DNA of 64,000 nucleotides from Rhodobacterales bacterium (GCA_965221505.1 CBDCSI010000002.1:60341-124340); one strand, 5' to 3'. Positions 6,984 through 22,205 are shown, numbered from the stretch's first letter. Program-made: numbers and translations. The notes: generated by a model not told the origin, from the sequence alone.

Positions 6984-8045
6984 ATGAAGATTCGATTGAA
7001 CGACTTCACTGCGGTCCGCTACCGTGGCATCTCCGGGCTGCACCTGGACCGCCTCGCCAAGTGTAACCTGATACTCGGCGCGAACGGCATCGGCAAGACT
7101 GCGCTGCTGGAAGCGATGTGGCTATTCGCCGGGAGATTCACTCCCACCTTGTTGTGGAGCGCAAACGTACAGCGAGCGCCCAATCGGTCGCTGAACCCGA
7201 TCGCTCGACTGACCGACGACCGCTTAGAGCTCCACGGAACGGAAAATGACGAGCATCACTCGATTCGGTACGAGTTTGAGCCACTAGCGAAGGACGCTCA
7301 AGCGATCGCGACTGTAGCCGCCTCGAAGGAGGACGCGCCGACCATGCCTCCAATAATCGGACGGCTCCATACGCTACTTGACAACAGGCACCTGTCGAAG
7401 GGGAATCAGCGTCCCTCCGTAACGCCTGCCGGCCTCGAGCTATTCGTTCCGCAAAACAGGCCTGCCGACAGGCCCGACTGCGCTATCGAAACAAGCCGCT
7501 CTCGTCACGATCACGATTTTTCGTCCGAATTGCCCGACCGCTATTCCGAACTCGTAAAGCTCGGACACAAGTCACATTTGGTCGAGACCCTCAACATTGT
7601 CTTGGATGGAATTTCAGACGTTGAACTTCTCACCCACGGAACGAACAACCCTCTCTTGTGGGTAACGGACTCGGCAGGCGCTCTTCGGCCGATTCATGAC
7701 CTTGGAAGAGGAGCCGAAAAGCTGGTCCGGTTGCTGCTGGACTTCTCATCCTCGCAAGGCGGCATTGTGTTCAGCGACGAATTGGAGATCGGTCTGCACT
7801 ATTCTGCGCATGCACTAATTTGGAAGACGTTGATGCAGTGGTTGGATCAGTGGAGCGTTCAATTCTTTGCGACGACCCATGATTGGGAACTGCTCACTTC
7901 GGCCATTGACGCGTTCGAGGGCGATTTGAATTCGCTCGCAATTCATCGACTCTATCTTGACTCAAAGCGCGGCTGCACGAGCGCAGTTACTTTTACGGGA
8001 GAGACCCTCGCCGGCGTACGCGACTTGAACCTGGAGATACGCTGA
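6984..8045 (+). CDS. ABC-type AAA ATPase (AAA_15/AAA_21-like)
   Basis: Walker A GANGIGKT, Walker B FSDELEIGLH, H-loop ATTHD; visibly lower GC than flanks. Confidence 0.85.
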   Translation: MKIRLNDFTAVRYRGISGLHLDRLAKCNLILGANGIGKTALLEAMWLFAGRFTPTLLWSANVQRAPNRSLNPIARLTDDRLELHGTENDEHHSIRYEFEPLAKDAQAIATVAASKEDAPTMPPIIGRLHTLLDNRHLSKGNQRPSVTPAGLELFVPQNRPADRPDCAIETSRSRHDHDFSSELPDRYSELVKLGHKSHLVETLNIVLDGISDVELLTHGTNNPLLWVTDSAGALRPIHDLGRGAEKLVRLLLDFSSSQGGIVFSDELEIGLHYSAHALIWKTLMQWLDQWSVQFFATTHDWELLTSAIDAFEGDLNSLAIHRLYLDSKRGCTSAVTFTGETLAGVRDLNLEIR

Positions 8046-8047
8046 CT

Positions 8048-8719
8048 GTGACCGGTCCACAGTCGCCCAGGACAGGAACGCGGGAATCCTTTCTACAGTT
8101 GACTTCCGATCGCCTTCTTCTTGTCGAGGGCCAGGACGAAGTAAACGTGTTTAGCGCACTGCTCGGATCCCTTCCCGACGGGGGAGTCGGTTCAAGAATT
8201 CAGGTAATTGAGGTTGGCGGGAAAAACGGGTTCTACAGGAGATTGAACGCAATCTGGGGCCTAATGAAGTCTGACCATACACTCCGGGCGATCGGGGTCG
8301 TTCGGGATGCAGACGAGAATGCGGACAGGGCATTCCAGAGCGTGACCCACGACCTGCGGAACGCTGGGTTTGAACCGCCTGACGCCCATGGCTGTTTCTC
8401 GGTCGGAACGCCGGTGGCAGGCGTATTCATCGTACCGGACGGACGGAATTCCGGCGCGCTGGAAACGCTACTTCGACGCTCGGTAGAGGAGACCCCAGCC
8501 GGGAGATGCGTCGATCAGTATCTGGACTGTCTCGAACAGCACGACGCCATGAAGTCGAGGAATGTCGACAAGAGCTTTGCGCATGCCTTTCTGGCCGCTT
8601 CCCGCAATCCGGTAGCACGAGTCGGCGAAGGGGCGCGCCAAGGCGTCTGGGATTTCGAGCATGCAGCCCTCGCCGATCTCGTTCGATTCGTTCGGGCGCT
8701 CGCCGAACGGGGAGGATGA
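8048..8719 (+). CDS. DUF3226-like TOPRIM-fold protein
   Basis: LLLVEGQDE and VVRDAD acidic TOPRIM motifs, GALETLL; 2 nt downstream of the ATPase. Confidence 0.75.
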   Translation: MTGPQSPRTGTRESFLQLTSDRLLLVEGQDEVNVFSALLGSLPDGGVGSRIQVIEVGGKNGFYRRLNAIWGLMKSDHTLRAIGVVRDADENADRAFQSVTHDLRNAGFEPPDAHGCFSVGTPVAGVFIVPDGRNSGALETLLRRSVEETPAGRCVDQYLDCLEQHDAMKSRNVDKSFAHAFLAASRNPVARVGEGARQGVWDFEHAALADLVRFVRALAERGG

Positions 8720-8821: not shown

Positions 8822-9325
8822 CTATTCCTCCACCAGCGTGAGCAGCCAGGCGACCACGTCCTCGATCTCCTGCGCCCGGTAGATCGTCTGACCCTCGTAT
8901 TCCGCCGCAACCCGGTGCAGCCCGTCGCGCCGGTAGTAGGACGGCATGACCGTCTCGGGATTGAACTGCTTGGGATCCACGAGCCGAAGCCGCAGTTCGC
9001 CCGCGGTGTAGCGGCTGCCGACGCCGTGCAAGGGCGGGCCGATGTCGCCCGGGTCAGGCTCGTCCGGAATCGGAAGCGCGTGACAGATGAGGCAGGTGGC
9101 GTTGTTAGCGTCCCGCACGATACGCTCGCCTCGGACCGGATCCCCCGGCATACGCGTAAGCGGCTCCGAAATCGCCAGTTCCAAAATCTCGAACGGGACC
9201 GGCTCCTCCGCCGGCGCTGCGTCGGCGAGGACAATACCGGCACAAGCCGTTGCAACTGCGAGCGTCGACGAGTTCCGGCGGCGCCGTCGGCGCTCAGTTG
9301 TACATGTCTGCGGTAATGCCGGCAT
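8822..9325 (-). CDS. soxX: Sulfur oxidation c-type cytochrome SoxX (start uncertain)
   Basis: PLTRMPGDPVRG, CLICH heme site, GDIGPPL, NPETVMP. Confidence 0.85.
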   Translation of the reverse strand: MPALPQTCTTERRRRRRNSSTLAVATACAGIVLADAAPAEEPVPFEILELAISEPLTRMPGDPVRGERIVRDANNATCLICHALPIPDEPDPGDIGPPLHGVGSRYTAGELRLRLVDPKQFNPETVMPSYYRRDGLHRVAAEYEGQTIYRAQEIEDVVAWLLTLVEE

Positions 9326-10592
9326 ACCAGCCTTGTGCGTAGATCGCCTCCGCCTTGCGGATTTCCGGCCCCGCATCGGCCGGGCTGACCCCGCCCGCGC
9401 CCGGAACAGACGCGATCTCGCCCTGCTCGTTCAGCCGGTAGACCGCCGCCACCGAAATCCCGTATTCCTCCGAAAGCAGGCTGTAGCAGGTGTTCATCAG
9501 CACCGGATCCGGCGTATCCTCTCCACCCAGCAAACCCGCTACCGCCCGAGCGCAGACCTTGGCCTGGTTGTTGGCGCTGAACCCCGACTTGGGCATGTCG
9601 CCGGCGAGAATCGCGTCGCCGAGAAGATGAATCCCCGGAACGACTTGCGACTCGAAGGTCCGGCCGTTCACCGGGCACCAGTCGCCGCCTGCGGCCAGGC
9701 CGGCGGTATCCACCAGGCGCCCGGCGCGCTGCGGCGGAACGACGTTGGCCACGTCCGCCCGAAACCGCTCGAAATCCGTCTGCAGGATCCTGTCCGTCGG
9801 TTCGACCGAGACGACGTTCCCCCCCTCCGAAAACCCGATCCACTCGATCATGCCGGGATAGAGTTCCTCCCAGCCCTGCCGAAACAGTCCCGCCTTGGAG
9901 AAGGAGTCCTTCGCGTCCAGGATCAGGACCTTCGAACGCGGCTTGTGCCGGTGCAGGTAGTTCGCGATCAGGCTCGCGCGCTCGTACGGGCCCGGCGGAC
10001 AGCGAAACGGATTGTCGGGCACCGCGATCGCCACGACGCCGCCGTCTTCCATGCTCTCGATCTGCCGACGCAGGAGCGCCGTTTGCGGTCCCGCCTTCCA
10101 GGCGTGCGGCATGCGCTCGGACGCCTCCGGGCCGTAATTCTCGATGGCGTTCCACTTGAAGTCGATGCCGGGCGACAGGACCAGCCGGTCGTAGGAAAGC
10201 GACTCCCCGTCGGCGAGGCGAACCCGCGACCTCTCCGGCTCGATCGCGACGGCGTCGCCCTGCACCACGGTCACGCCCTGCCGGCGCAACCCGTCGAACC
10301 CGTGGGTAATGGAGTCGAGATCCCGCAATCCGCCCAGAACCGCGTTGCTGAACGGGCAGGTCGCGAACGCCGCGCTGCGCTCGACCAGCGTGACCCTCAG
10401 GTCGGACGAGAGACGCCGCAGATACCGCGCACAGGTGGCGCCGCCGAAGCCGCCGCCCACGACCACGACCGCACCCTTGACCCGTGCCAGCCCCGGCGCA
10501 GGCAGCGCCCCCGCCACCATCGCAGCGCCCGCGAGTTTCAGGAGGTCGCGACGGGACCCCCTTTCCCCGGAAAGGCGGTTCTTCGTCCTCAT
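9294..10592 (-). CDS. fccB: Flavocytochrome c sulfide dehydrogenase flavoprotein subunit (FccB/SoxF)
   Basis: Tat motif SRRDLL, GGGFGG FAD site, TCPFSN, FRCPPGPYERA, MPKSGFSAN, NTCYS. Confidence 0.93.
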   Translation of the reverse strand: MRTKNRLSGERGSRRDLLKLAGAAMVAGALPAPGLARVKGAVVVVGGGFGGATCARYLRRLSSDLRVTLVERSAAFATCPFSNAVLGGLRDLDSITHGFDGLRRQGVTVVQGDAVAIEPERSRVRLADGESLSYDRLVLSPGIDFKWNAIENYGPEASERMPHAWKAGPQTALLRRQIESMEDGGVVAIAVPDNPFRCPPGPYERASLIANYLHRHKPRSKVLILDAKDSFSKAGLFRQGWEELYPGMIEWIGFSEGGNVVSVEPTDRILQTDFERFRADVANVVPPQRAGRLVDTAGLAAGGDWCPVNGRTFESQVVPGIHLLGDAILAGDMPKSGFSANNQAKVCARAVAGLLGGEDTPDPVLMNTCYSLLSEEYGISVAAVYRLNEQGEIASVPGAGGVSPADAGPEIRKAEAIYAQGWYAGITADMYN

Positions 10593-10912
10593 TGTCCGCC
10601 GGCCTCCGGATTGCCGGTACCGCCGAAGTGGCCGGCAAGGACGTCGATCTCCTCGTCGGTCAGAGCCCGGGCGATGCGGCCCATCACCGTGGATTCGATC
10701 TCGCCGGCGCGAAAGCCCTGCAGGAACGCGCGCATGACCGCCGCATTGAGAGATGCGATGTCGGGAATCGACCCAGCGCTCGCGCCGTCCGGACCGTGGC
10801 AGGCGGCGCACTGGTCCGCGAGCAGCGGCGGCGCAGGCTCCGCCGCCGAATCGGCTCCGGCCGCAAGACTAGCCGCCAGAGCGAGGGTGAAAACGACCCC
10901 GCGGGATCTCAT
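10589..10912 (-). CDS. fccA: Monoheme cytochrome c subunit of flavocytochrome c (FccA-like)
   Basis: Signal peptide, CAACH, STVMGRIARA; stop overlaps the fccB start. Confidence 0.8.
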   Translation of the reverse strand: MRSRGVVFTLALAASLAAGADSAAEPAPPLLADQCAACHGPDGASAGSIPDIASLNAAVMRAFLQGFRAGEIESTVMGRIARALTDEEIDVLAGHFGGTGNPEAGGQ

Positions 10913-10928
10913 CTCGCCTGCCTCCGAA

Positions 10929-10956
10929 GCCGGCGGCCGACCCGTCGGCCGCCGGC
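10929..10956 (-). promoter_or_regulatory. Intercistronic 12-bp GC stem-loop after the molybdoenzyme large subunit
   Basis: GCCGGCGGCCGA-cccg-TCGGCCGCCGGC perfect inverted repeat, no U tract. Confidence 0.6.
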
Positions 10957-10973
10957 CGGGTTCCGACCGTGCC

Positions 10974-13271
10974 TCAGCCGGTCAGATCGTGATTGCGAAT
11001 CGGCAATCTGCGGATGCGCTTGCCCGTGGCCGCGAAGATGGCGTTGGCGACCGCCGGAGCGACCGGGGGCACGCCGGGCTCGCCGATCCCGCCCCACTTG
11101 TCTCCGCCGGAGAGCGCCAGATGCGTCCGGATCTCCGGCATCTCGTTCATGCGCAGCATCAGATACTGGTCGAAATTGTCCTCGACGACCGCACCGTTGC
11201 GGATGTGGTTTTCGCCGTAGAGAGCCGCCGTCAATCCGTAGACGATGGAGCTCTCCATCTGCATCTCGACCGTCTTCGGATGAACGACGTTCCCGCAGTC
11301 CACCGCGCAATCGATCGTCTCGACCCGCAACTGACCGCGGCGACTGACCGTCACATAGGCGCACTGCGCCGTGATGGTCCCGAACGCTTCGGCGATGCCG
11401 ACGCCCATTCCTTCGCCGCGGCGAAGGTCGGTCGTATAGCCCGCCTTGTCGGCCACCACCCGAAGCACATGCGCGAACTCCGAATCTTCCGGCAACAGGC
11501 TCAGCCGGAACTCGACCGGATCCGCGCCTGCGGCGTGCGCCAGTTCGTCGACGAAGGATTCGACCGCAAACGCGTTCTGCGACGCGCCGACCGCTCGCCA
11601 CCAGTGCACCGGCAGATGCGAGTCGCGAATGGCGTAATCCACCTGCTTGCTGGCGAAATTGTACGGAAGCCGTTCGTCCAGCCCTTCCACCGCCTGCCCG
11701 TCGATCCCGTCGCTCAGGAACTGCGGAATGAGATGGTTGAAGATGGAGTGCGACACGATCCGGTTCCAGTAGGCCGTCGGCCGGTTGTCGTCCCCGAGCG
11801 CGGCGGAAAAGTGATACACCGAGTACGGACGGAGCTTGGCCTGCCGGGCCGTCTCCTCCCGCGTCCAGATCACCTGGACCGGCCGCCCGAGCGCCGTCGC
11901 GATCGCGGTCGCCTGACGAGCGTCGTCCGGACGCGAGCGCCGCCCGAAGCCGGTGCCGAGGAAGGTCTGGTGGACGTACACCTTTTCCGGCGGCAAGCCG
12001 GATTCCTCCACTGCGACCTGGTGCACCCTCGGGGGATTCTGGGTGCTCGCCCAGACGTCCGCCCGGTCCGCCGTCACGTGGGCCGTGCAGTTCATCGGTT
12101 CGATGCAGGCATGATCCAGATACGGGGTGACGTAGGTCGCTTCCAGCACGTTCGACGACGCTCCGATCGCGCCCCTCGCGTCCCCGACGGACTCGGCCGG
12201 GTTGTAGGTCGGATCGTCGGGATTGGCGAGGACCTCCAACGCACCGTCGATGATGCTCTCGTCGCTGACGTCGCCGTATCCCCCGTCGTCCCACTCCTTC
12301 GGCATGAGCTGCAGCGCGGTCAGGGCGCGATAGTAGGTGTCCGCCACGACCGCCACGCCGCTCTGTATGCCGGTGGAGCGGCCGGTGACGTCCTCGAGGT
12401 CGTAATGGACCTTGCCGATTCCGCCCTCGCCCAGCCGATACGCGCCGATCACTCCGGGCCGGTCCTTGACCGCGTCGAAGTCGTAGCTGACGAGACGTCC
12501 GCCGGGAACCGGAGACGCTTCAACGGCCGCATACACCATGTCCGGCACGCGAACGTCGATGCCGTAGACGGCGCTTCCGTTTACCTTTAACGGCGTATCG
12601 AGCCGGGGTACCGACGTACCGATCAGCGTGTACTCTTCGACCGGCTTGAGCGCCGGCTCGGTCTCCAGATCGATACCCGCGGCCGCCGCCGCGAACTCTC
12701 CGAAGGACCCGGTGTTGTCGCCCGCGCTCAGCATGCCGTTTTCCGCCGAAACCGCGGAGCGGTCCACGCCCCAGGCGTTCGCGGCAGCCTGCTTCAGCCG
12801 CTCGCGCGCGCTGGCGCCGGCCTGCAGCAGGTAAAGCCGGGACCTGCGCACTGCCCCGGAGCCGCCCGTTCCCATGCGCTGGTAGAGATTGTCCGTCTCC
12901 TTGGCCGCGCCGGCCTTGACCATATACGGCTCGGCCGTGTTCTGGACATGCCGGTTCACGTCGGCGTAGACCGCCTTGACCGTCGACCAGTCGCATTGCA
13001 GCTCTTCCGCGACCAGCATGGGCATGGAGGTAAACACGCCCTCGCCCATTTCGGCCTGGCCGACGCGGATCGTCACCGAATTGTCGGGATCGATCGCGAG
13101 CCAGGCGTTGACTTCCGGAGCTCCCTCCATGGCCGTCCACGGCTCGCCCATGATCGAGGCCGCGTCCGCCCGTACCGGAATGTGGAAGCCGATCGCCAGG
13201 CCGCCAGCGGCGCTGACGCCGGTTACGATGAACTTCCGCCGGTCCATTTCCATTCTTGTCATTTCATTCAT
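10974..13271 (-). CDS. Xanthine oxidase-family molybdopterin large subunit (isoquinoline 1-oxidoreductase beta / aldehyde oxidoreductase-like), Tat-exported
   Basis: Tat [48 protein letters not shown]. Confidence 0.92.
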
Positions 13272-13729
13272 CCCTGCGCGATTTCGGCGGCCCGGTGAAT
13301 CGCCTTGCGGATCTGGGCATAGGTGCCGCACCGGCAAATGTTGTCCGACATGGCCGCGTCGATGTCGAGGTCGGACGGACTCGGCCGCTCCTGCAGGAGC
13401 GCAGCCGCCGCCATGATCTGTCCCGACTGGCAATAGCCGCATTGCGGGACGTCCCCTTCGGTCCAGGCGATCTGGACCGGATGGGAACTGTCCTCGGACA
13501 GGCCTTCGATGGTGGTGATTTCCTTGCCGACGGCGGCGGAAACCTTGGTCTGGCAGGAAAACGCCTTGCGGCCGTCAATATGGACGGTGCAGACGCCGCA
13601 TTTGGCGATCCCGCATCCGTATTTCGTTCCCGTCAGTCCGATGTTGTCCCGGAGCACCCACAGGAGCGGGGTTTCCGGTTCGGCGTCGACCGTATAGGCC
13701 GTGCCGTTCACAGAGAGCGTCAAAGCCAT
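13268..13729 (-). CDS. 2x[2Fe-2S] small subunit of the molybdoenzyme (IorA/CoxS-like)
   Basis: [31 protein letters not shown]. Confidence 0.95.
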
Positions 13730-13934
13730 GCGCACTTCCTCCCTTGCTGGACCCGTCGTCCCGGCAAGCGGAGGCAAGAAGTCTGGCTTGTCGATTCAGG
13801 CTGGTTGCGCGCGCTCGCGGAACGCCGTCCACAGTCTACAGTAGGCAGACCGGGCGCTCAAGCGCCGATTCCCTCGCGTCCCGACGCGATCCGGACGATT
13901 CCCGCACTGTGCGACCGGCCGGCAAGAACGGTCG

Positions 13935-15245
13935 CTACCAGTGGGCCCGCTTCGCCGCGACGTGACCGGCCAGATCTTCCCAGGCCGGGAGGTCGGTGAA
14001 GTGCCAGCGGACGAATCCGAGCAGGTCCACGATGTCCGAATCCGAAATCGACGCGCCGAAGGAAGGCATCGATCGCTGAAGCGCGCCGCGCGGCGGGCGA
14101 ATTCCGTCGAATACGATGTGGACGACGTTGCGCGGGTCAGGAGCGTTCACCGTACCGGTCAGGGCGAGCGACACCGGAAACTGTCCGCCGCCGCGCTTGT
14201 GACAGGTGGCGCACTGGTCCCGGAACACCTCCATCCCGCGCACCAGCGACGGATCTTCCGGAACCCGCTCGGGCCATGCTCCGTCCGACGCGTCCCAGTC
14301 CAAGGTTCGCGCTCTTGCGAGAACCTCTTCGCGCGCCTCCGGGGACAGCGGGGGACGCTGCAGCGATTCGAAATACGCCGCGATCGCGAACACGTCGTCC
14401 TCCGACTGGTCGTAGAGGTGGTTGACCACGGGCGCCATCGGCCCCGCCGCGATCCCGTGTTCCTCGTCCCAACCGTCGAACAGGTAATTGACCAGTTGCA
14501 GCTGGCTCCAGGGAATGGGAGTCGGAGAGCTGGCGTCGAGCGCGGGCGCATGCCAATGTTCCGCCTCGCCGCCGGAATAGGCCGCGCTCCGAATCACCGC
14601 CCCGAAGACGTTGCGCGGCGAATGGCACGCGCCGCAATGCGCGACGCCTTCCGCAAGATACGCGCCCCGATTCCATTCTTCGCTGCGGTCCGGATCCGGT
14701 TCGAGTTCGCCGGATTCCAGGAACAGGAGCTTCCACCCGGCCAGGAGCGTGCGGACGTTGAACGGAAACCCCAGTTCGTTCGGCGAGGCTTCCCGGTTCA
14801 CCGGATCGATCGTCATGAGATAGGCGTAGGCCGCCCGGATGTCCCCGTCCGTCATGAGGCGGAAGTGGTCGTAGGGAAACGCCGGATAGAGATGGCGCCC
14901 GCGCCGGTCGACGCCCTCCCGCATGGCGCGCAGGAAGGCTTCCTCCGACCAGCTTCCGATCCCGGTCTCCGGGTCCGGCGTTATGTTGGTCGAATAGATC
15001 GTTCCGAACGGCGTCGGCAGCGGCAGTCCGCCCGCGAAGGGCTCCCCGCCATGGGCCGTATGGCAGACGGCGCATGCGCCCATGCCGACCATGGCCTTTC
15101 CGCTGCGCACCAGGGCGGTATCGAACGAGGCGCCGTCCAGCGGCGAAATCGGCGGAATCTCCGCATGCCGGTTGGCCCAGGCCAACGCCGCCGCGAATGC
15201 GACCAGTACGACCGCGACCGAAATCCAGACCCGTCGTCTACGCAT
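13935..15245 (-). CDS. Triheme cytochrome c subunit (aldehyde/gluconate dehydrogenase cytochrome type)
   Basis: CAVCH, CGACH and CATCH; TPFGTIYSTNITPD, LYPAFPY; N-terminal anchor. Confidence 0.9.
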   Translation of the reverse strand: MRRRRVWISVAVVLVAFAAALAWANRHAEIPPISPLDGASFDTALVRSGKAMVGMGACAVCHTAHGGEPFAGGLPLPTPFGTIYSTNITPDPETGIGSWSEEAFLRAMREGVDRRGRHLYPAFPYDHFRLMTDGDIRAAYAYLMTIDPVNREASPNELGFPFNVRTLLAGWKLLFLESGELEPDPDRSEEWNRGAYLAEGVAHCGACHSPRNVFGAVIRSAAYSGGEAEHWHAPALDASSPTPIPWSQLQLVNYLFDGWDEEHGIAAGPMAPVVNHLYDQSEDDVFAIAAYFESLQRPPLSPEAREEVLARARTLDWDASDGAWPERVPEDPSLVRGMEVFRDQCATCHKRGGGQFPVSLALTGTVNAPDPRNVVHIVFDGIRPPRGALQRSMPSFGASISDSDIVDLLGFVRWHFTDLPAWEDLAGHVAAKRAHW

Positions 15246-15257
15246 CGCCGAAACGCC

Positions 15258-16160
15258 CTATCGGCATGCGGGCGTAAACTCGCTTTCGGCATGGCGGTCG
15301 AAGGCCGTATCGGAATCCGGTCCTTCGAGTTCGCGCACGAGCCGGAATCCCAGATCGTTGCGGCCCTCTCCGGCCGGGCGCGGCACCCGGTAGCGCGCGA
15401 TTCCGGCCCAGTCGGAATGGAACGCTCCGCCCCGCGTGATGCGCTCCGCGCAATCGCCGCTCTCGCCGACGCTGCCGTCGCGCGGCGCGTCGGAGAGGGG
15501 ACCGTTGCAGTCCGCCGTCCACTCCGCAACGTTTCCGAGCATGTCGGCGAGACCGAAGGCGTTCCGGAATCCCCCGCCGATATTGGCCGTCGCGAGCTCG
15601 TCCTCGAGACCCATCACGTCGGACCCGAAGCAGGTGGCGCACTTGGCCTGGCCGGCCTTGAGGTTGCCGGTCACGAACCAGGTCGATTCGTGACCCGCTC
15701 CGGCGCGGGCGGCATATTCCCACTCGGCCTCGCTCGGGAGACGGTAGGCGCTTCCGGTCCGTTCAGAGAGCCAGGCGGCGTAGGCGGCGGCGTCCTCCCA
15801 GGTCACGCAGACGACCGGACGACTGTCGCGCTGGCGAAAGCCCGGATCGTCCCAGCCGCCTTCGGGGTAGTCCTTGTCGCCGGTGGTGCTGTATCGCGTG
15901 CATCCCCGAAGCGGGATCCCCGCAGCCTCGGCGTACGGGCGAAATTCGCCGACCGAGACCTCGCACACGCCGAGCGCAAAGGCGTCGCCGACGGTCACCG
16001 TCACCGGTTCGGCGTCGAAATTCTCCGCCCGGGGAAAGGTCCCCGCCTCCACCTTGACCATGAGCGGACAGGTTTCGCACTCCTGAAGCAATTCCGCGGC
16101 GCCCGCCAGGCGGGAACTCGCCAGCCATGCGGCAACGAGAACGAGGACGGCTCTGTTCAT
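15258..16160 (-). CDS. Exported formylglycine-generating-enzyme (SUMF1/FGE-sulfatase) fold protein
   Basis: Signal peptide, ECETCPLMV, YRLPSEAEWEYAARAG, NAFGLADMLGNVAEW, RGGAF, GFRLVRE; GGAGGAG RBS. Confidence 0.85.
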   Translation of the reverse strand: MNRAVLVLVAAWLASSRLAGAAELLQECETCPLMVKVEAGTFPRAENFDAEPVTVTVGDAFALGVCEVSVGEFRPYAEAAGIPLRGCTRYSTTGDKDYPEGGWDDPGFRQRDSRPVVCVTWEDAAAYAAWLSERTGSAYRLPSEAEWEYAARAGAGHESTWFVTGNLKAGQAKCATCFGSDVMGLEDELATANIGGGFRNAFGLADMLGNVAEWTADCNGPLSDAPRDGSVGESGDCAERITRGGAFHSDWAGIARYRVPRPAGEGRNDLGFRLVRELEGPDSDTAFDRHAESEFTPACR

Positions 16161-16224
16161 GGTCTCTCCTCCCATGCCGCAAGGATACCGGCGTCTGACG
16201 AACGCGTGCGGACTCGACGCTCGC

Positions 16225-17043
16225 TCACGGGCGAACGGCAGGGGCCTCGATCGGCAACCCCCGGCCGCGCCAGGCCAGATACAACTCCAGCCCCAGATAC
16301 TCCCGCGAACCGAGTTCGAACGTCTCGGCGCGAACCGCCCAGTTGCACCAGCGAAACATGCGGTGACGTGACCCCATCGAGCCCCACATCAGACGATAGA
16401 ACGGGAATCCGTTCACGTGGCCCTGGCTGATTCGGTCCCCCCGCAAATATGACCCGGTCAAGTCCTCATGGCACTGACGGCAGGCCAGGTCCAGCTGCCC
16501 CCTGCGCCGCATGTAGAATTCTCGCCCCTCTTCCCAATACTGCCGCGCACCCCCGGACACGTCGACGTTCATCGGCATCCCCCGCGACTGGAACGCGACG
16601 AACGCCGAGAGCGCGAGCATCTCCTCGGACTCGAGCTCCCAGGACGGCGCCCCCATATAGTCGGTCCGCATCCGGTTGATGCGCGCCTCGAGATTCATCA
16701 GGCGTCCGAGATCCGGGTCGTATTCGGGATACCGCGCTGCCACGCCCCGCATCGATTCGCCGCCGTCGCCATGGCAGGAAGAACAAGCGTGTCCGTCGGT
16801 GCCGGCCGGCTCGTTCCACAGTTCGGCGCCTCGCTCCACGGCAAACATCCCGGGGTTCAGGAAATCGTCGTCCTGCAGCGCCCGGATTTGCGCGCCCATG
16901 TATTCGTATCCGGAAATCGGACCGTCGCTGCCCGTCGGGTCCGGCTCGCCGGCATGCGCCGCGAATCCGGAGAGACCCAGCGCCAGCGCGACGAGCGCCC
17001 GCCGCGCCCTGCCGGCGGCATCCCGTTCGGGGGGTGCGCTCAG
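16225..17043 (-). CDS. soxA: Diheme SoxA (L-cysteine S-thiosulfotransferase subunit); start uncertain
   Basis: CSSCH and CRQCH, GQLDLAC, GFPFYRL, active-site-type RMFRWC, LELYLAWRG, PAVRP end. Confidence 0.9.
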   Translation of the reverse strand: MSAPPERDAAGRARRALVALALGLSGFAAHAGEPDPTGSDGPISGYEYMGAQIRALQDDDFLNPGMFAVERGAELWNEPAGTDGHACSSCHGDGGESMRGVAARYPEYDPDLGRLMNLEARINRMRTDYMGAPSWELESEEMLALSAFVAFQSRGMPMNVDVSGGARQYWEEGREFYMRRRGQLDLACRQCHEDLTGSYLRGDRISQGHVNGFPFYRLMWGSMGSRHRMFRWCNWAVRAETFELGSREYLGLELYLAWRGRGLPIEAPAVRP

Positions 17044-17366
17044 ACTATTTCGATGTCGGCCCAATCGGCGTATTCGCTTCCGTCGTCGTCGTACCACCGG
17101 AACTCCATCCGACCCGATTCCCGGATCGCGGCAAAGAAGGTCAGGAAGGGATTCTCCGACACCGCTTCGTGCCAGTCCGCCTGAAACACCGTCTCGCCGT
17201 TGAAGGTCGCCTCGAAGCGGTGAATCAGGCGCCGGGGAATGCGCTCGCCGTCCCGGTTGAACATGAAGCCGTTGTCCATCGGATGGGAGACCAGCGTCTT
17301 GACCTGGAAGGGTTCCCCCGCGATCGCCCGTTCGGGCACCGATTTGCGAATTCGAACCGCTGTCAT
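17040..17366 (-). CDS. soxZ: Sulfur carrier subunit SoxZ
   Basis: VKTLVSHPMDNG, AVSENPFLTF, WYDDDG. Confidence 0.92.
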   Translation of the reverse strand: MTAVRIRKSVPERAIAGEPFQVKTLVSHPMDNGFMFNRDGERIPRRLIHRFEATFNGETVFQADWHEAVSENPFLTFFAAIRESGRMEFRWYDDDGSEYADWADIEIV

Positions 17367-17400
17367 TGCCGAGCGCTCCCTTGCGTTCCGGAATTTCGGG

Positions 17401-17973
17401 CTACTGCCGCTCCCGCTGCCGCCTGCGTCGCGCCGCTTCCCTGTCCGGCAGGAAGATCTCCACCGCGCAGGCGCCGAGCGTGACCGATACGTATCGGGCC
17501 GACATCCACGCGGTATCGTCGCTCATCAGCGCGAACCCGTAGACGTACTGGGTCTGGGCCAAGCGAATGCGCTGGGCGACGCGGGCGATTCCGGACGCGG
17601 GCGTGAAGCGATAGTCGGCGACCAGAGGCTGCGGATTCCGCGTCGCGATCACGTGCAGGCTGCGGACGTGGTCCGTCCGGGTCATCGGAGAATCCGGGAC
17701 CGACACGTCCATCGGGACGGACAAGCCCGAATCCGCCCGATCCGGCAGGTCGAGCACGACCCGGCCCTCCCGGAAGTCCCGCCGGCCGAGCCGCTCCTCG
17801 ACCAGCGCGAGCATCCATTCGGGCATTTGCGGAATTGCCTGTGCGGCCGACAGGGGCGTCGAGGTTACCGTCGCGACGGAGCCCGCAACGGCGCACAACG
17901 CTCCCCTGCGGCTGATCCGTTCCGCCCCCAGCCGGTCTCCGGCGGGCCGGTCAACGTCGATCGCCCGTCCCAT
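17401..17973 (-). CDS. SoxY-related carrier protein with a non-canonical Cys arm
   Basis: Tat SRRGAL, ADSGLSVP, RNPQP, RIRLAQTQ; ends VSVTLGACAVEIF... instead of GGCGG. Confidence 0.85.
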   Translation of the reverse strand: MGRAIDVDRPAGDRLGAERISRRGALCAVAGSVATVTSTPLSAAQAIPQMPEWMLALVEERLGRRDFREGRVVLDLPDRADSGLSVPMDVSVPDSPMTRTDHVRSLHVIATRNPQPLVADYRFTPASGIARVAQRIRLAQTQYVYGFALMSDDTAWMSARYVSVTLGACAVEIFLPDREAARRRRQRERQ

Positions 17974-18153: not shown

Positions 18154-19431
18154 TCAGCGGTAGAACGCCGACGGCAACCAGAGCGCGATCTCGGGCACGA
18201 AGGTGATCAACAGGAGCACCAGGATCAGCGGCACGAGGAACGGCATGGTGGCCCGGAAGCACTGTTCGAATTTCACTCCGGAGACCTCGGCCAGCACGAA
18301 CAGCACCATCCCGACCGGCGGCGTCAGCAGCCCGAGCATCAGGTTCAGGATCAGGAGAATGCCGAGATGCACCGGATCGATGCCCGCGGTGGCTGCGATC
18401 GGCAGGAGTACCGGAACCAGAATGGTGATCGCGGCGATGGTCTCCATGAACAGCCCGATGAGCAGCACGATGACCATCATGATCAGAAGCAGGACGTGCT
18501 TGTTGTCGGTGATCCCGAGCAGGGTGTTGCCGAGCAGCGTCGCCACCTGTTCCGCCGTCAGGATCCAGGCGAAGACCGCAGCGGCCGAGACGATCATCAG
18601 AATGGCGGCCGACGTTTCGATGGTGTCGATCGAGACGCGCACCAGATGGCGCCATGTGAGGGAGCGATAGACCACCAGACCGAGAAACAGCGCGTAGCAA
18701 ACCGCGGCCACCGCCGCTTCCGTCGGCGTGAAGATGCCGGTCGCGATTCCCCCGACGATGATGATCGGCGTCATGAGCGGCAGAACCGCGTCCTTGAGGC
18801 AGGCCCAGATGCGGCAGAAGTCGATCCGGCTGTCGCGCGGATAGTTCCGGCGCTTCGCGTACCAGGCCACCATGACGATCAGGGACGCGGCCATGAGGAG
18901 GCCGGGCACCAGGCCGGCGGCGAACAATTCGCCGATGGAGGCCGACGCCATCACGCCGTAGATCACGAGCGGAAGCGAGGGCGGAATGATCGGACCGATG
19001 GTCGAGGAGGCGGCGGTCACCCCGACCGAGAAATCCGTGTCGTAGCCGGCCTCGCGCATCGCCTTGATCTCGACGTTGCCGAGCCCGCCGGCGTCGGCGA
19101 CGGCCGCGCCGGACATCCCGGCGAAGATCACGCTGGCCCCCACGTTCACGTGCCCGAGCCCGCCGGGCAGCCAGCCGACGAGGGAACGCGCGAACGCGAA
19201 GATCTTGGTGGTGATTCCGCCGGTGTTCATCAAGTGCCCGGCCAGGATGAAGAACGGAATCGCGAGGAGCGGAAAGCTGTCGATCCCGCCGATCATCCGG
19301 TGAATCAACACGACGTCCGGCAAGCCCTTGATCAGGACGTAGGCGAGGGACGCCAGACCCAGCGACACCGCGACGGGCACGCCGAGAAACAGGAATACGG
19401 CAAGCAGGATCAGCAGGATTGCGAGCGCCAT
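18154..19431 (-). CDS. dctM: TRAP transporter large permease
   Basis: SFPLLAIPFFILAG, GPIIPPS, FTPTEAA, LLTPPVG. Confidence 0.95.
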   Translation of the reverse strand: MALAILLILLAVFLFLGVPVAVSLGLASLAYVLIKGLPDVVLIHRMIGGIDSFPLLAIPFFILAGHLMNTGGITTKIFAFARSLVGWLPGGLGHVNVGASVIFAGMSGAAVADAGGLGNVEIKAMREAGYDTDFSVGVTAASSTIGPIIPPSLPLVIYGVMASASIGELFAAGLVPGLLMAASLIVMVAWYAKRRNYPRDSRIDFCRIWACLKDAVLPLMTPIIIVGGIATGIFTPTEAAVAAVCYALFLGLVVYRSLTWRHLVRVSIDTIETSAAILMIVSAAAVFAWILTAEQVATLLGNTLLGITDNKHVLLLIMMVIVLLIGLFMETIAAITILVPVLLPIAATAGIDPVHLGILLILNLMLGLLTPPVGMVLFVLAEVSGVKFEQCFRATMPFLVPLILVLLLITFVPEIALWLPSAFYR

Positions 19432-19447
19432 GACGGTGTCCCTCCCT

Positions 19448-19999
19448 TCAGGTTTGCGGACTCTCCGGAATGATCTCCTCGACCGGCTGACCGGCCTTCT
19501 TGACGAGATTTGCGAGCGCGAAAACGGCCATCAGGAAGCAGGCGGCCGAGACCACGTAGTAGAGATACGCCTTCGGCAGCGCGATCGAGACCATGTTCGA
19601 TGCGGTGCGCTGCGAGAGTTCGATGGCGAGCCAGCCCGCGTATCCCCAGAATCCGCAGACCGCCGCCTCCACCGCCAGGACGATCGGCTTCAGCGTCCCG
19701 ACCGGCAGCATGTGATAGGCAAATTCCAGGAATATGTGCTTGCCCTTGCGAACGCAGGTAATTCCCCCGACAAATCCGAGCAGTATCAGGAAGTAGCGGG
19801 CGATCTCCTCGGTCCAGCCGAGGCTGTCGTTCAGGACGTAGCGGGTAAAGAACTGAAGCGCGACGATGACGAACAGGACGAAGAAGATCAGCAATACCGG
19901 AACGTCGAAGGCCCGGACGTCCGAAATGTCGTCCGAGACCTCTTCCAGCTGGCCGACCAGCTCGTCGATCGCGTCGTGGGCCTTCGGGTCAGACATCAT
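19448..19999 (-). CDS. dctQ: TRAP transporter small permease
   Basis: QFFTRYVLNDSLGWTEEIARY; four TM segments. Confidence 0.92.
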   Translation of the reverse strand: MMSDPKAHDAIDELVGQLEEVSDDISDVRAFDVPVLLIFFVLFVIVALQFFTRYVLNDSLGWTEEIARYFLILLGFVGGITCVRKGKHIFLEFAYHMLPVGTLKPIVLAVEAAVCGFWGYAGWLAIELSQRTASNMVSIALPKAYLYYVVSAACFLMAVFALANLVKKAGQPVEEIIPESPQT

Positions 20000-20019
20000 C
20001 CTCGCTCCTGTCTTGCGGG

Positions 20020-20050
20020 CGCCCGGCCGCCGCTCTCGGGCGGCCGGGCG
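20020..20050 (-). promoter_or_regulatory. Stem-loop after the TRAP binding-protein gene
   Basis: CGCCCGGCCGCC-N7-GGCGGCCGGGCG perfect 12-bp inverted repeat. Confidence 0.6.
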
Positions 20051-20068
20051 AACGGGTCGGGTTCGGAA

Positions 20069-21055
20069 CTACTCGGCGTCCGGCACGGCCTGAAGCCGCT
20101 CGTAGAGTTCCGTCGAAAACGGCAGGTCGCCCGCGGTAAGGGCGGGCGCGACAGCCGCGATGAAGGGCCCGCGGTCCACTTCGTTGACGTTGACGCCCTG
20201 GTCGCGGAACCAGCCGACGAGTTCGGCCTCGGACGCGACGATCTGCTCGGTCACCCAGTCGGCCGTCTCGTCCAGCACGCCGTGCAGGATCTCGCGGTCC
20301 TCGTCGCTCAGCTGCATGAGGCGGAGCCCCGACACCACCGTGAAGGTCGAGTTGGTGATATGGCCGGTGAGGTTGATGTCGCTCTGCACTTCGTGGAACC
20401 GCTTTGCCTGGATGGTCGGGAGCGGATTCTCCTGCGCGTCGACCACGCCCTGCTGCAGGGCGAGATAGACCTCGGCGAAGGCCATGGGCGTCGGGTTGGC
20501 GCCGACCGCCGCGGGGAAGAGCACGTAGGCGGGCGCGTTGGGGACGCGAATCTTCAGGTCCTCCATGTCCCCGGGCGTCAGGATCGGCTTGTTCGACGTC
20601 ACGTGGCGAGAGCCGTAGTAGCTGACTGCGGCGACGACGTTGCCGCCGGTCGTGTCGGCGTAGCCCTGCGCGACCTCGGCCCAGACGTCGCTGTCGTAGT
20701 AGGCTTCCCAGTGCTTCAGGTTGCGAAGCGTGAAGGGAAAGTCCGTCATGGACGCAGGGCCGTAGATGGAACCCGCAAATCCGGCGCCGGTATAGATGAC
20801 GTCCACCGTCCCGAGCGACAGGGACTCGTTGAGGTCCGCCTCCTTGCCGAGCGAGGACGCCGGGAAGACCTCCATGCTGTGCCGTCCGCCGGTGCGCTCC
20901 TCGAACAACGCGGCCGCGTCCAGCGCCGCCTGGTGCAGCGGGTGCCCGACCTCGTAGACATGCGCGAATCTCAGCGTGTCCGCCCTTGCGTCGTTCCCCC
21001 CCGCCGCGGCCAGCGCCACGACTGCGGCAGCGAGGAACATGTACCTGCAATTCAT
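20069..21055 (-). CDS. dctP: TRAP substrate-binding protein (DctP/SiaP family)
   Basis: Signal peptide, YGSRH, LKIRVP, EVYLALQQGVVDAQENPL. Confidence 0.93.
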   Translation of the reverse strand: MNCRYMFLAAAVVALAAAGGNDARADTLRFAHVYEVGHPLHQAALDAAALFEERTGGRHSMEVFPASSLGKEADLNESLSLGTVDVIYTGAGFAGSIYGPASMTDFPFTLRNLKHWEAYYDSDVWAEVAQGYADTTGGNVVAAVSYYGSRHVTSNKPILTPGDMEDLKIRVPNAPAYVLFPAAVGANPTPMAFAEVYLALQQGVVDAQENPLPTIQAKRFHEVQSDINLTGHITNSTFTVVSGLRLMQLSDEDREILHGVLDETADWVTEQIVASEAELVGWFRDQGVNVNEVDRGPFIAAVAPALTAGDLPFSTELYERLQAVPDAE

Positions 21056-21107
21056 CGTTCTACCTCCTTCTCTCCTCCATGGAGTGGTTCCTGCGTGCGA
21101 GCGCCGT

Positions 21108-22205
21108 TCATGAAACGGCTTCGTGATGCGCCCGCAGCATCGCGAAGTCGAACTCGACCCCGGTTCCCGGCGTGGACGGAGCCACGGCCAGATGGTCCTC
21201 CACCGCCAGCGGGCGGGTCGTGTATTCGTCGATGGGAAAGCTGTGCACCTCGAGCCAACCGGCGTTGGGCTGCGCCGAGACGAGGCTCGCGTGCAACTCC
21301 TGCATCCCGTGGCTGCAGACCGGCATGCCCTGCGCGCGCGCCGCCTTCGCGACCTCGAGCCAAACGGTGACGCCGCCGCAATTCGACGCGTCGGGCTGGA
21401 TGTAGGACAGCCCCGCGTCCCGGAAGGCGCATTCGAACTCGTGCAGCGTACGCAGGTTCTCGCCCATGGCCAGCGGACAGCCGGTCTCGCGCGCAATCTC
21501 GCCATATCCCCGGTAGTCCTCCGGAACGATGGGCTCCTCGAACCAGAGAACGCCGAGTTCCCCAAAGGCGCGCGCCGCTTCCTTGGCACGGTCGATATCG
21601 AGCGCGTAGTTGGCGTCGACCATGAAGGCGACGTCGGGACCGATCAGGTCGCGCACCGCACGGGCCCGTTCGAGATCCTCGTCGAGCCGCTCCTTTCCGA
21701 CCTTGATCTTGACGCCGTCGAACCCGTCGGCCAGATACCCGCGGACGCTCTCCAGGAGACGGGGCAGCGAATAGTTGAGGTCGATGCCGCCCCGGTACGC
21801 CTTGCATCGGTCCGACGCGCCGCCGGCGACCTTCCACAGCGGTTCGTCCCTCCCGCGGCACCGCAGGTCCCACAGGGCGATGTCCAGCGCCGAAATGGCG
21901 AAGGAAGCGATTCCGCCGCGGCCGACGTAATGGATATGCCAGTTCATCGCCGCATTGAGCGATTCGACGCGCCCCGCGTCCCGGCCGAGGAGAAACGGTC
22001 CGAGATCCTGCCGGATCAGCGCGAGGATCGCCTCGCCCCCGATCCCGCCCGTGTAGGTATAGCCCGTCCCGCACAATCCGGAATCGGTCCGGACGCGAAC
22101 CACCACCAGCTCGAAATGCGTGTGGTCGCCGTGCATGGCGTCACGCAACACCTCCTTCAGAGGCAGGCGGAAGTGTTCCGCGTCTATGGAAGCGATTCGG
22201 TTCAT
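21108..22205 (-). CDS. Mandelate racemase/MLE-family enzyme, 3,6-anhydro-L-galactonate cycloisomerase-like
   Basis: [73 protein letters not shown] match my recollection of the Vibrio EJY3-type cycloisomerase. Confidence 0.8.

Follow-up and report, generated by a model that had tools for sequence, protein, structure and literature searches.

The closest described relative of the system discussed here is the "second sox cluster" of Starkeya novella, soxX2Y2Z2A2F2 together with a molybdenum (Mo) enzyme of the xanthine oxidase (XO) family, Snov_1975-1982 (Kappler and co-workers, 2013; PMC3797975). In the portions of that paper that deal with the cluster, it has no SoxB or SoxCD and its function is left open. 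It is a cassette of the type whose SoxY carries the arm described by the NCBIfam model TIGR04487, "SoxY-related AACIE arm protein". In the present work, we examine a ten-gene operon of this kind in a stretch of 64,000 nucleotides from a Rhodobacterales bacterium (the window, by which the whole stretch is meant). We will show that the operon is a real and conserved system of unassigned function, and a new lineage of a kind that is already in print. The original prediction, made from the sequence of the window, called the system uncharacterised, which holds for its function, while the system itself had been noticed in the 2013 paper. Our literature search gave no paper that pairs SoxY with "AACIE" or names TIGR04487, and for the pairing of sox genes with an XO-family enzyme only PMC3797975 was relevant.

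With the Kelly-Friedrich pathway the operon shares SoxAX and SoxZ that pass the corresponding model cut-offs, a SoxA cysteine that aligns with that of the solved structure 1h31_A, and the carrier cysteine. It differs in that the genome is without SoxB and SoxCD, the arm of the carrier is not GGCGG, and an XO-family enzyme is found where the sulfite-oxidase-family SoxCD would be. A further likeness is to the quinoprotein dehydrogenase-associated SoxYZ-like carriers of TIGR04557, which, according to the relevant passages of a paper from 2024 (PMC11237559), are non-GGCGG SoxY(Z) proteins encoded beside a periplasmic dehydrogenase of carbon compounds, in hosts that need not oxidise thiosulfate. 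As described there, these carriers differ in that SoxY and SoxZ are fused, SoxAX and FccAB are missing, and the partner enzyme is a pyrroloquinoline quinone (PQQ) alcohol, methanol or formate dehydrogenase and not a Mo enzyme; that paper has 0 occurrences of "molybd" and "xanthine" and does not mention an XO-family partner.

New in the window are the extended arm of the carrier, an AldF-like trihaem cytochrome, a PvdO-like FGE-fold protein and a permuted gene order. The reading that we prefer, with a probability of roughly 0.4, is that the Mo enzyme acts on a carrier adduct loaded by SoxAX, and that the operon encodes a self-contained periplasmic carrier-protein oxidation module that works without SoxB and SoxCD.

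The operon consists of ten co-oriented genes on the minus strand, at positions 8822-17973. Strand, start codons, coordinates and haem motifs were derived from the sequence, and family matches from Pfam and NCBIfam; by these means each of the ten genes originally predicted was found at its place and in the predicted order:

17401-17973, minus strand: soxY-like carrier, 190 residues; PF13501 98 bits.
17040-17366, minus strand: soxZ, 108 residues; TIGR04490 84 bits against a cut-off of 76.
16225-17097, minus strand: soxA, dihaem (CSSCH and CRQCH); TIGR04484 230 bits against 110.
15258-16175, minus strand: FGE-fold protein of the PvdO type, 305 residues; PF03781 146 bits.
13935-15245, minus strand: trihaem cytochrome c of the AldF type, 436 residues; CAVCH, CGACH and CATCH.
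13730-13934, minus strand: spacer of 205 nucleotides between module A and module B (defined below).
13268-13729, minus strand: [2Fe-2S] small subunit, 153 residues; PF01799 99.7 bits, and PF00111.
10974-13271, minus strand: XO-family Mo large subunit, 765 residues; PF02738 and PF20256; twin-arginine translocation (Tat) leader RRKF.
10589-10912, minus strand: fccA, monohaem cytochrome c (FccA/SoxE-like), 107 residues; PF00034; CAACH.
9294-10592, minus strand: fccB flavoprotein (FccB/SoxF-like), 432 residues; PF21706 159 bits, PF09242 100 bits.
8822-9376, minus strand: soxX, monohaem (CLICH), 184 residues; TIGR04485 67.8 bits against 61.

The intergenic distances across the operon lie between -83 and +61 nucleotides, with the 205 nucleotides between the cytochrome gene and the FeS gene as the sole exception. 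The start of soxX overlaps the end of fccB by 83 nucleotides, the end of the [2Fe-2S] gene overlaps the start of the Mo-subunit gene by 4, and the GTG start of soxA, a start codon that is uncertain, overlaps soxZ by 58. A ribosome-binding site, GGGAGGA, is located upstream of the ATG of the [2Fe-2S] subunit, and seven CXXCH sites are present in the operon in total. A scan of the operon for promoters and terminators, which is uninformative in such G+C-rich DNA, gave 0 sites resembling a promoter and, on the minus strand, no candidate terminator.

The SoxY of the window has a twin-arginine leader (SRRGAL), and its carrier cysteine, Cys169, is part of the arm LGACAVEIFLPD, with a basic tail of 11 residues after it. 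The arm does not read GGCGG but GACAVE..., and the model for true SoxY, TIGR04488, yields 82.9 bits against a cut-off of 125. The best NCBIfam model is TIGR04487, with 118 bits (118.6 in the genome search), under its cut-off of 172. An AACIE-type arm has the form AAC[ILVT][ED] plus 1-4 residues, which the window arm does not fit; the only part common to the two is the Ala-Cys dipeptide, which is invariant in 30/30 aligned sequences. The database homologues of the window SoxY are 81 related protein clusters, mostly metagenomic and nearly all of them unnamed, with 48-82% identity. An arm of the form GACA-x-[ED]-IF is kept in 80 of the 81, and it is therefore a conserved feature and not the result of read-through. 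As judged from these sequences, the extended arm GACAVEIFLPD is a new feature relative to the AACIE cassettes.

In order to compare the window with these cassettes, we collected loci with TIGR04487 matches. Of 401 genomes sampled from the class, 18 have a match at or above the cut-off of the model; in a sample of the phylum the figure is 8 of 401, with three of the 8 from outside the class. The 18 loci fetched comprise 15 of the 18 places over the cut-off (the other three are on very short contigs) and three just under it. The order FeS-Mo-(fccAB)-soxX-soxY-soxZ-soxA is present in 17 of the 18, and this neighbourhood is not part of the definition of the TIGR04487 hidden Markov model. fccB is found in 10 of the loci, the other 8 being without FccAB, and the trihaem cytochrome and the FGE-fold gene are found in none (0/18). 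A Methylobacterium plasmid (NZ_CP087107) has the same eight cassette genes with PGAP annotation.

The window holds the same neighbourhood parts in a permuted order. It had been assumed that soxA and soxX are normally adjacent and that in the window an insertion had split them; in the related cassettes, however, soxYZ lies between them (soxX-soxY-soxZ-soxA). Since soxX and soxA flank soxYZ there, the window order is a circular permutation of the cassette and not an insertion between neighbours. The likeness to the S. novella and AACIE cassettes thus extends over the [2Fe-2S] subunit, the XO-family Mo subunit, FccAB, SoxX, a variant SoxY, SoxZ and SoxA, the absence of SoxB and SoxCD from the cluster, and the Ala-Cys dipeptide of the arm. 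On the other side, the SoxY of the window falls under the TIGR04487 cut-off and has GACAVEIFLPD plus a tail in place of the short arm, the gene order is circularly permuted and divided between two modules, there is an AldF-like cytochrome and a PvdO-like protein in addition, its Mo subunit and its SoxA are each found in a separate clade, and its SoxAX is the sole SoxAX of the genome. Judged by protein families, gene order and trees, the window cluster is a separate lineage of the known, uncharacterised AACIE cassette.

The linkage of the genes is conserved among close relatives. A scan with the Mo subunit, taking one genome per species, gave 31 loci, of which 15 are close orthologues with 77-87% identity, from Rhodobacterales/Paracoccaceae metagenome-assembled genomes (MAGs) and one Immundisolibacterales MAG. 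The FeS and Mo subunits, fccA, fccB and soxX occur together in all 15. Within 10 kb of them, soxY-soxZ-soxA is found in 10 of the 15, with the cytochrome in 9 of these 10 and the FGE gene in 7 (in L014 as a fragment only). The remaining five genomes hold the same type of SoxY, and the four that were fetched (G001, G002, G004 and G005) have a contiguous soxY-soxZ-soxA-FGE-cytochrome block 15-21 kb upstream of FeS-Mo, with the FGE and cytochrome matches of G004 being fragmented. In all 14 close loci with enough contig to judge, the distance from the soxYZA block to the Mo subunit is accordingly no more than about 21 kb. The linkage between the variant SoxY and the Mo subunit is thus conserved, in 15 of 15 loci for the genes around the Mo subunit and in 14 for soxYZA.

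These loci reveal two modules, namely soxYZA-FGE-cytochrome (module A) and FeS-Mo-fccAB-soxX (module B), with an insert of variable size between them. The insert contains an AMP-binding (acyl-CoA ligase) gene in L004, and an aldehyde dehydrogenase gene and AMP-binding genes in L006; in other loci it is much longer. Both SoxAX and the Mo enzyme are split, with soxA and the cytochrome in module A and soxX and FeS-Mo in module B. Each module thus supplies one half of SoxAX and a part of the Mo enzyme, and the two remain linked whatever the insert, which argues that they work together. The order can also differ: L005 has FeS-Mo-fccAB-soxYZA-cytochrome-soxX, and L014 (1158-12295) has Mo-fccAB-soxX-soxYZA, fragments of the FGE and cytochrome genes, and a second FeS-Mo copy, such that two FeS-Mo copies flank the set. 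L014 may be the remnant of a duplication that permuted the gene order.

Seven more distant proteobacterial Mo-subunit loci, detected via the Mo subunit itself, were also considered (L019-L024 and L032). Sox genes are found in only one of these, L024, and in two others, L022 and L023, the locus is truncated by a contig end. It is important to point out that most rows of the trees and of the locus comparison were fetched via SoxY, and that the converse linkage, from the Mo subunit to sox genes, is weaker.

In the tree of the Mo subunit, the window type (support 100/100) groups with two variants described below (G101 and G332:C24) and with L019, which has no sox genes, at a support of 98/99, and the AACIE and GACAETFE types form a second clade (95/95). 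The SoxA tree has three groups that match the arm type: GGCGG-linked (19 rows, support 99), AACIE-linked (19 rows, 98) and extended-arm-linked (11 rows, 90). Both trees place the window in a clade apart from the AACIE type. For SoxA the tree is needed, as identity alone, 42-54% to both the cassette and the canonical copies, gives no separation. The SoxY tree is poorly resolved, with 36 of 65 inner branches open, SoxY being too short for the deep order.

Further variants were found beyond these two types. The G101 locus (L094, G101:C18, 8351-19703) has two tandem FeS-Mo copies that are 50-51% identical to those of the window, fccAB, soxX-soxA, SoxZ, an open reading frame (ORF) of 117 residues without a Pfam match, and an FGE-fold gene 41% identical to the window copy; the arm of its SoxY reads YGACVEDIFAVENEEY..., with a tail of 37 residues after the cysteine. 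In G109 and G272 the SoxY arm is SGACAETFE. A minimal pair of Mo enzyme and carrier is found in G332:C24 (L112, 8857-12554), where FeS-Mo (Mo subunit 41% identical to the window) is divergent from soxY, with the arm VIGACEGLGFTY, and soxZ, and no soxA or soxX is in view. The elements common to every variant are the Mo enzyme and a carrier of the SoxYZ type whose arm contains [AGS]-A-C. A match on an Indioceanicola plasmid was rejected as a system of the window type, as it has soxX-soxA-soxY-soxZ only, with a GGCGG arm.

We now consider the host genome, which consists of two contigs with 4.54 Mb in total and is 94.6% complete. There are 0 candidates for SoxB in it, and the best match for SoxC, on the other contig, scores 184.6 bits against a cut-off of 420, SoxD not having been searched separately. 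The absence of SoxB and SoxCD, stated originally for the window, therefore holds for the whole genome, in the sense of 0 SoxB candidates and no SoxC at or above the cut-off. The sole soxA and the sole soxX of the genome are those of the operon (tblastn). In the 37 cassette-carrying genomes, SoxB reaches its cut-off in 5 and stays below it in 32, and it is found in 0 of the 15 genomes of the window type. With SoxB this rare among the carriers and absent from the genome itself, the window system cannot be an accessory of the Kelly-Friedrich pathway. The general proposal of the original prediction, that of a periplasmic system of uncharacterised function that ties an XO-family Mo enzyme to SoxAX, SoxYZ and FccAB, is borne out by a linkage that survives both rearrangement and change of lineage.

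A search for a SoxY of the GGCGG type led to another SoxY, which ends in GGCG and is encoded on the other contig with no SoxAX beside it. It belongs to a second carrier module (locus L001, C1:2108979-2111772), where the SoxY ends in VTVGGCG, one Gly short of GGCGG, and the other genes encode SoxZ, a dihaem cytochrome c of 244 residues and a paralogue of FccB that is 47% identical to the window FccB. A VGGCG SoxY like that of L001 is also present in three related genomes (L040-L042), and the soxYZ-cytochrome-fccB set on the pSymA plasmids of Sinorhizobium resembles the L001 module. These Sinorhizobium plasmid matches, which have soxYZ-cytochrome-fccB only, were rejected as systems of the window type.

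The enzyme at the centre of the operon has the three-subunit architecture of AldFGH, the membrane-bound aldehyde dehydrogenase of Gluconobacter oxydans (8gy3), which oxidises free aldehydes and reduces ubiquinone. The best solved relative of the Mo large subunit is the AldH large subunit (8gy3_C, E 5.1e-71, over residues 8-763), and that of the trihaem cytochrome is the cytochrome c subunit of the same aldehyde dehydrogenase (8gy3_A, E 4.2e-88, residues 20-434). Both are thus full-length homologues, and the small subunit has the Fer2_2 and Fer2 domains and no signal peptide. The cytochrome has an N-terminal membrane anchor, and its homology to AldF fits the earlier suggestion that electrons would leave via the trihaem cytochrome. 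It differs from AldFGH that the cytochrome gene is in another module than FeS-Mo, that the enzyme is encoded among Sox genes, and that the AACIE relatives are without the cytochrome. The motifs GGGFGRR and GEP (E731) are invariant across 32 carrier-linked homologues of the Mo subunit. Another residue, C93, is present in 34 of 35 carrier-linked homologues versus 2 of 16 others, and could not be placed in the structure.

SoxA, SoxX and SoxZ all pass the NCBIfam equivalog cut-offs. The best solved relative of SoxA is 1h31_A, with E 1.5e-63, and the window cysteine in FRWCN aligns with the cysteine of FRGCI, which we take to be the active-site haem ligand. In the Rhodovulum protein 1h31_A there is also a cysteine in INACRT, which is replaced by methionine in the window SoxA (INRMRT). 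This cysteine is presumably the ligand of the first haem, in which case the first haem of the window SoxA may be His/Met-ligated. SoxX has an N-terminal extension, and the alignment begins at residue 1 in 8 of 15 relatives and at residues 5-7 in 4 more. FccB has the FCSD central and flavin-binding domains and a Tat leader (a weak TAT_signal match), and the adjoining cytochrome is monohaem.

The FGE-fold protein has a signal peptide and 10 cysteines. Its closest solved relative is PvdO (5hha), a periplasmic protein of pyoverdine maturation, with E 1.5e-26 over the full length, while true FGE structures are far weaker (E about 1e-12). The NCBIfam model for PvdO gives 122 bits against a cut-off of 500. 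Like PvdO the protein is periplasmic; unlike in the PvdO case, there are no pyoverdine genes here, and the genome of the window has at least 12 FGE-fold paralogues. By eye, the segment RGGAFHSDWAGIARYR is without a cysteine where the catalytic pair of FGE, near the C-terminus, would be expected. The paralogues of the FGE/PvdO fold are 32-44% identical and include two tandem arrays (C2:1184778-1189165 and C1:2688258-2692603).

A contact between the carrier and the Mo enzyme was examined by means of a complex model, which consisted of SoxY (47-190), SoxZ and the Mo subunit (37-765). The score is 0.73 (median of three runs), to be compared with 0.53 for the best control. In the calibration, 58 of 80 solved complexes attained this mark, as did 2 of 110 mismatched pairs; these counts are only rough for this model, which was built with our own alignments. 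The runs share at least 78% of the contacts, and the predicted local distance difference test score (pLDDT) of the partner is at least 87. The predicted interface involves SoxY 165-188, i.e. Cys169 and the tail, and the SoxZ loop 34-42, and on the Mo subunit residues 412-428, 448, 509-538, 547-561, 594-598 and 628-631. A total of 18 positions of the Mo subunit are conserved in the carrier-linked homologues only, and three of these (412, 547 and 549) are inside the predicted interface of 69 residues, versus about 1.7 expected by chance, which is too weak to be used. The model supports, but does not show, that SoxYZ docks on the Mo subunit; to our knowledge, there is no solved complex of an XO-family enzyme with SoxYZ.

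On this basis, we infer the substrate, the chemistry at the Mo centre, the release of the product from the carrier and the role of the FGE-fold protein as follows. SoxAX would oxidatively load Cys169 with a sulfur compound, for which sulfide, polysulfide and thiosulfate are the most likely candidates, and FccAB would oxidise free sulfide in parallel. The arm of SoxYZ would then dock on the Mo/[2Fe-2S] enzyme, which would oxidise the carrier-bound adduct and thereby take the place of SoxCD, and in effect also of SoxB, of the Kelly-Friedrich pathway. In the window lineage, the electrons would pass via the AldF-like trihaem cytochrome to the quinone pool or the respiratory chain, and the PvdO-like protein would be an accessory of the extended-arm lineages. 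That the Mo enzyme might act on a carrier-bound adduct had been mentioned in brackets in the original prediction; the direct contact that this implies is favoured by the complex model, and the adduct chemistry stays at the level of a proposal. The scheme in its fullest form is doubtful, namely that the XO-family enzyme would take a SoxYZ-tethered substrate and oxidise the sulfur adduct in a third periplasmic route of sulfur oxidation without SoxB or SoxCD, with the AldF-type cytochrome leading to the respiratory chain and the PvdO-like protein servicing the arm in extended-arm lineages.

A number of observations weigh against the preferred reading. We know of no XO-family enzyme that acts on a protein-bound or inorganic sulfur substrate, and the closest solved relative of both the Mo subunit and the cytochrome is an aldehyde dehydrogenase. 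No evident hydrolase for product release is found among the genes of the cluster. Cys169 is 21 residues from the C-terminus and not at the end of a free swinging arm. The complex model passes marginally, by +0.20 over the best control, and it contains no cofactors; moreover, a control in which SoxZ was kept and SoxY replaced still scores 0.53. Some Mo-subunit homologues in the same clades have no sox genes in view (L019 and L032). In the S. novella study, as far as its sections on the second cluster go, expression was very low on thiosulfate, methanol and glucose, and the SoxAX and SoxYZ proteins were undetected (PMC3797975). Finally, the soxY2 of Bradyrhizobium diazoefficiens, for which the type of arm is unconfirmed, is according to the pertinent part of PMC5748708 not the copy that is essential for thiosulfate oxidation.

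An alternative is that the Mo enzyme hydroxylates a free sulfur-bearing carbon compound, such as thiocyanate, COS or CS2, a thione heterocycle or a thio-aldehyde, and that FccAB and SoxAX/SoxYZ capture and oxidise the sulfide or sulfane sulfur that this sets free. As the catalytic XO-family motifs GGGFGRR and GEP (E731) are kept, hydroxylase chemistry on carbon is the default expectation, and FccAB is available in the operon and in 10 of the 18 AACIE cassettes. It is, on the other hand, missing from the other 8, and the minimal variant G332:C24 pairs FeS-Mo with SoxYZ in the absence of SoxAX. The aldehyde dehydrogenase and acyl-CoA ligase genes between the modules in L004 and L006 could speak for a free substrate, but just 2 of the 15 loci of the window type have such inserts. 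A free organosulfur or heterocyclic substrate was the first choice of the original prediction, which the neighbourhoods do nothing to support: clustering of the ORFs around 20 AACIE-type loci gave no recurrent flanking gene, be it a transporter, a regulator or a catabolic or downstream enzyme, with no family in more than 4 of 20, and the flanks of 16 window-type loci display only synteny at the level of relatedness (enolase-superfamily, arginase-family, ADH and CoA-transferase genes). The complex model, with its predicted direct contact, also weighs against this reading. We consider a free substrate unlikely.

Another option is that the Sox proteins maintain the Mo enzyme. The terminal Mo=S ligand is essential in the XO family and easily lost, for example to cyanide, and SoxAX, SoxYZ and FccAB could build a carrier persulfide that is delivered to the Mo centre to install or restore Mo=S, the real substrate being an unrelated aldehyde or heterocycle. 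The predicted direct contact between SoxYZ and the Mo subunit would fit this proposal, as would the fact that the Mo enzyme and the carrier are what every variant shares and that the window-type enzyme has the full AldFGH architecture. However, sulfuration of the cofactor in the XO family normally takes place in the cytoplasm, with chaperones of the XdhC/PaoD type, before Tat export, and as far as we know periplasmic relatives that have been studied in detail, such as PaoABC and AldFGH, do without a system of this kind. Moreover, the cost of four to six genes would be a heavy outlay for repair, and this scenario appears improbable.

About equally improbable is a role of the carrier in aldehyde oxidation, in which its cysteine would trap a reactive periplasmic aldehyde as a thiohemiacetal and the AldFGH-like Mo enzyme would oxidise the tethered form. 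All three subunits are full-length homologues of the 8gy3 aldehyde dehydrogenase, secondary matches to TIGR04557 are found in the window, and the predicted docking of SoxYZ on the Mo subunit would be compatible with such a role. By analogy, it could parallel the SoxYZ-like carriers encoded beside PQQ alcohol and methanol dehydrogenases; in the passages of PMC11237559 on divergent SoxYZ beside PQQ-ADH and XoxF, a role in carbon metabolism is proposed. The oxidation of aldehydes by the XO family requires no thiol, though, and SoxAX and FccAB, sulfur enzymes that are conserved in nearly all cassettes, would be left without a role.

A lack of functional coupling, with the Mo enzyme and the Sox genes simply lying side by side on a mobile cassette or having no more than an electron acceptor in common, is very improbable. 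Sox-less Mo-subunit homologues do exist in the same clades (L019 and L032), and there was hardly any expression of the S. novella cluster under the conditions covered in the sections of PMC3797975 on it, but the linkage is kept across four or more gene orders, several types of arm, two clades of the Mo subunit and several classes of Pseudomonadota, and each window-type module has half of SoxAX and half of the Mo enzyme.

The neighbouring genes of the operon in the window were also inspected. The TRAP transporter and ccm genes were rejected as parts of the system, being found in 0 of 15 related loci; the ccm genes had originally been seen as fitting the haem demand, but ccmF and ccmE are within 10 kb in none of the 15. 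The TRAP genes dctP, dctQ and dctM, together with an enolase-superfamily gene, are located directly upstream of soxY on the same strand (18154-22205, minus strand) and are absent from 15 of 15 related loci. In L004, ABC-permease genes, with counterparts at 25107-26693 of the window, abut soxY. The TRAP block looks like a local insertion. On the other side of the operon, between an ilvD/edd-like gene and soxX, there is a two-gene insert with a lower G+C content, 0.62 (6984-8719, plus strand), which encodes an AAA_21 ATPase and a DUF3226 protein; this pair has matches to PDC-M38A/B, a candidate defence system of PADLOC, and to AbiLi. In L004 and L006, soxX is directly followed by the ilvD-like gene. 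The insert is not a conserved neighbour and was rejected as a part of the system.

Sox clusters linked to an XO-family Mo enzyme are present in many Pseudomonadota, and no function has been assigned to them since 2013. With 32 of 37 cassette carriers lacking SoxB, the cassette genes are probably miscounted in metagenome surveys as a "partial Sox pathway" or as thiosulfate oxidation. The lineage of the window, found in Rhodobacterales MAGs, is the most complete version of the cassette because it carries its own route to the membrane, and its extended, conserved arm provides an experimental handle. If it is true that the Mo enzyme works on the carrier, this would mean both a new chemistry for the XO family and a new mode of sulfur oxidation.

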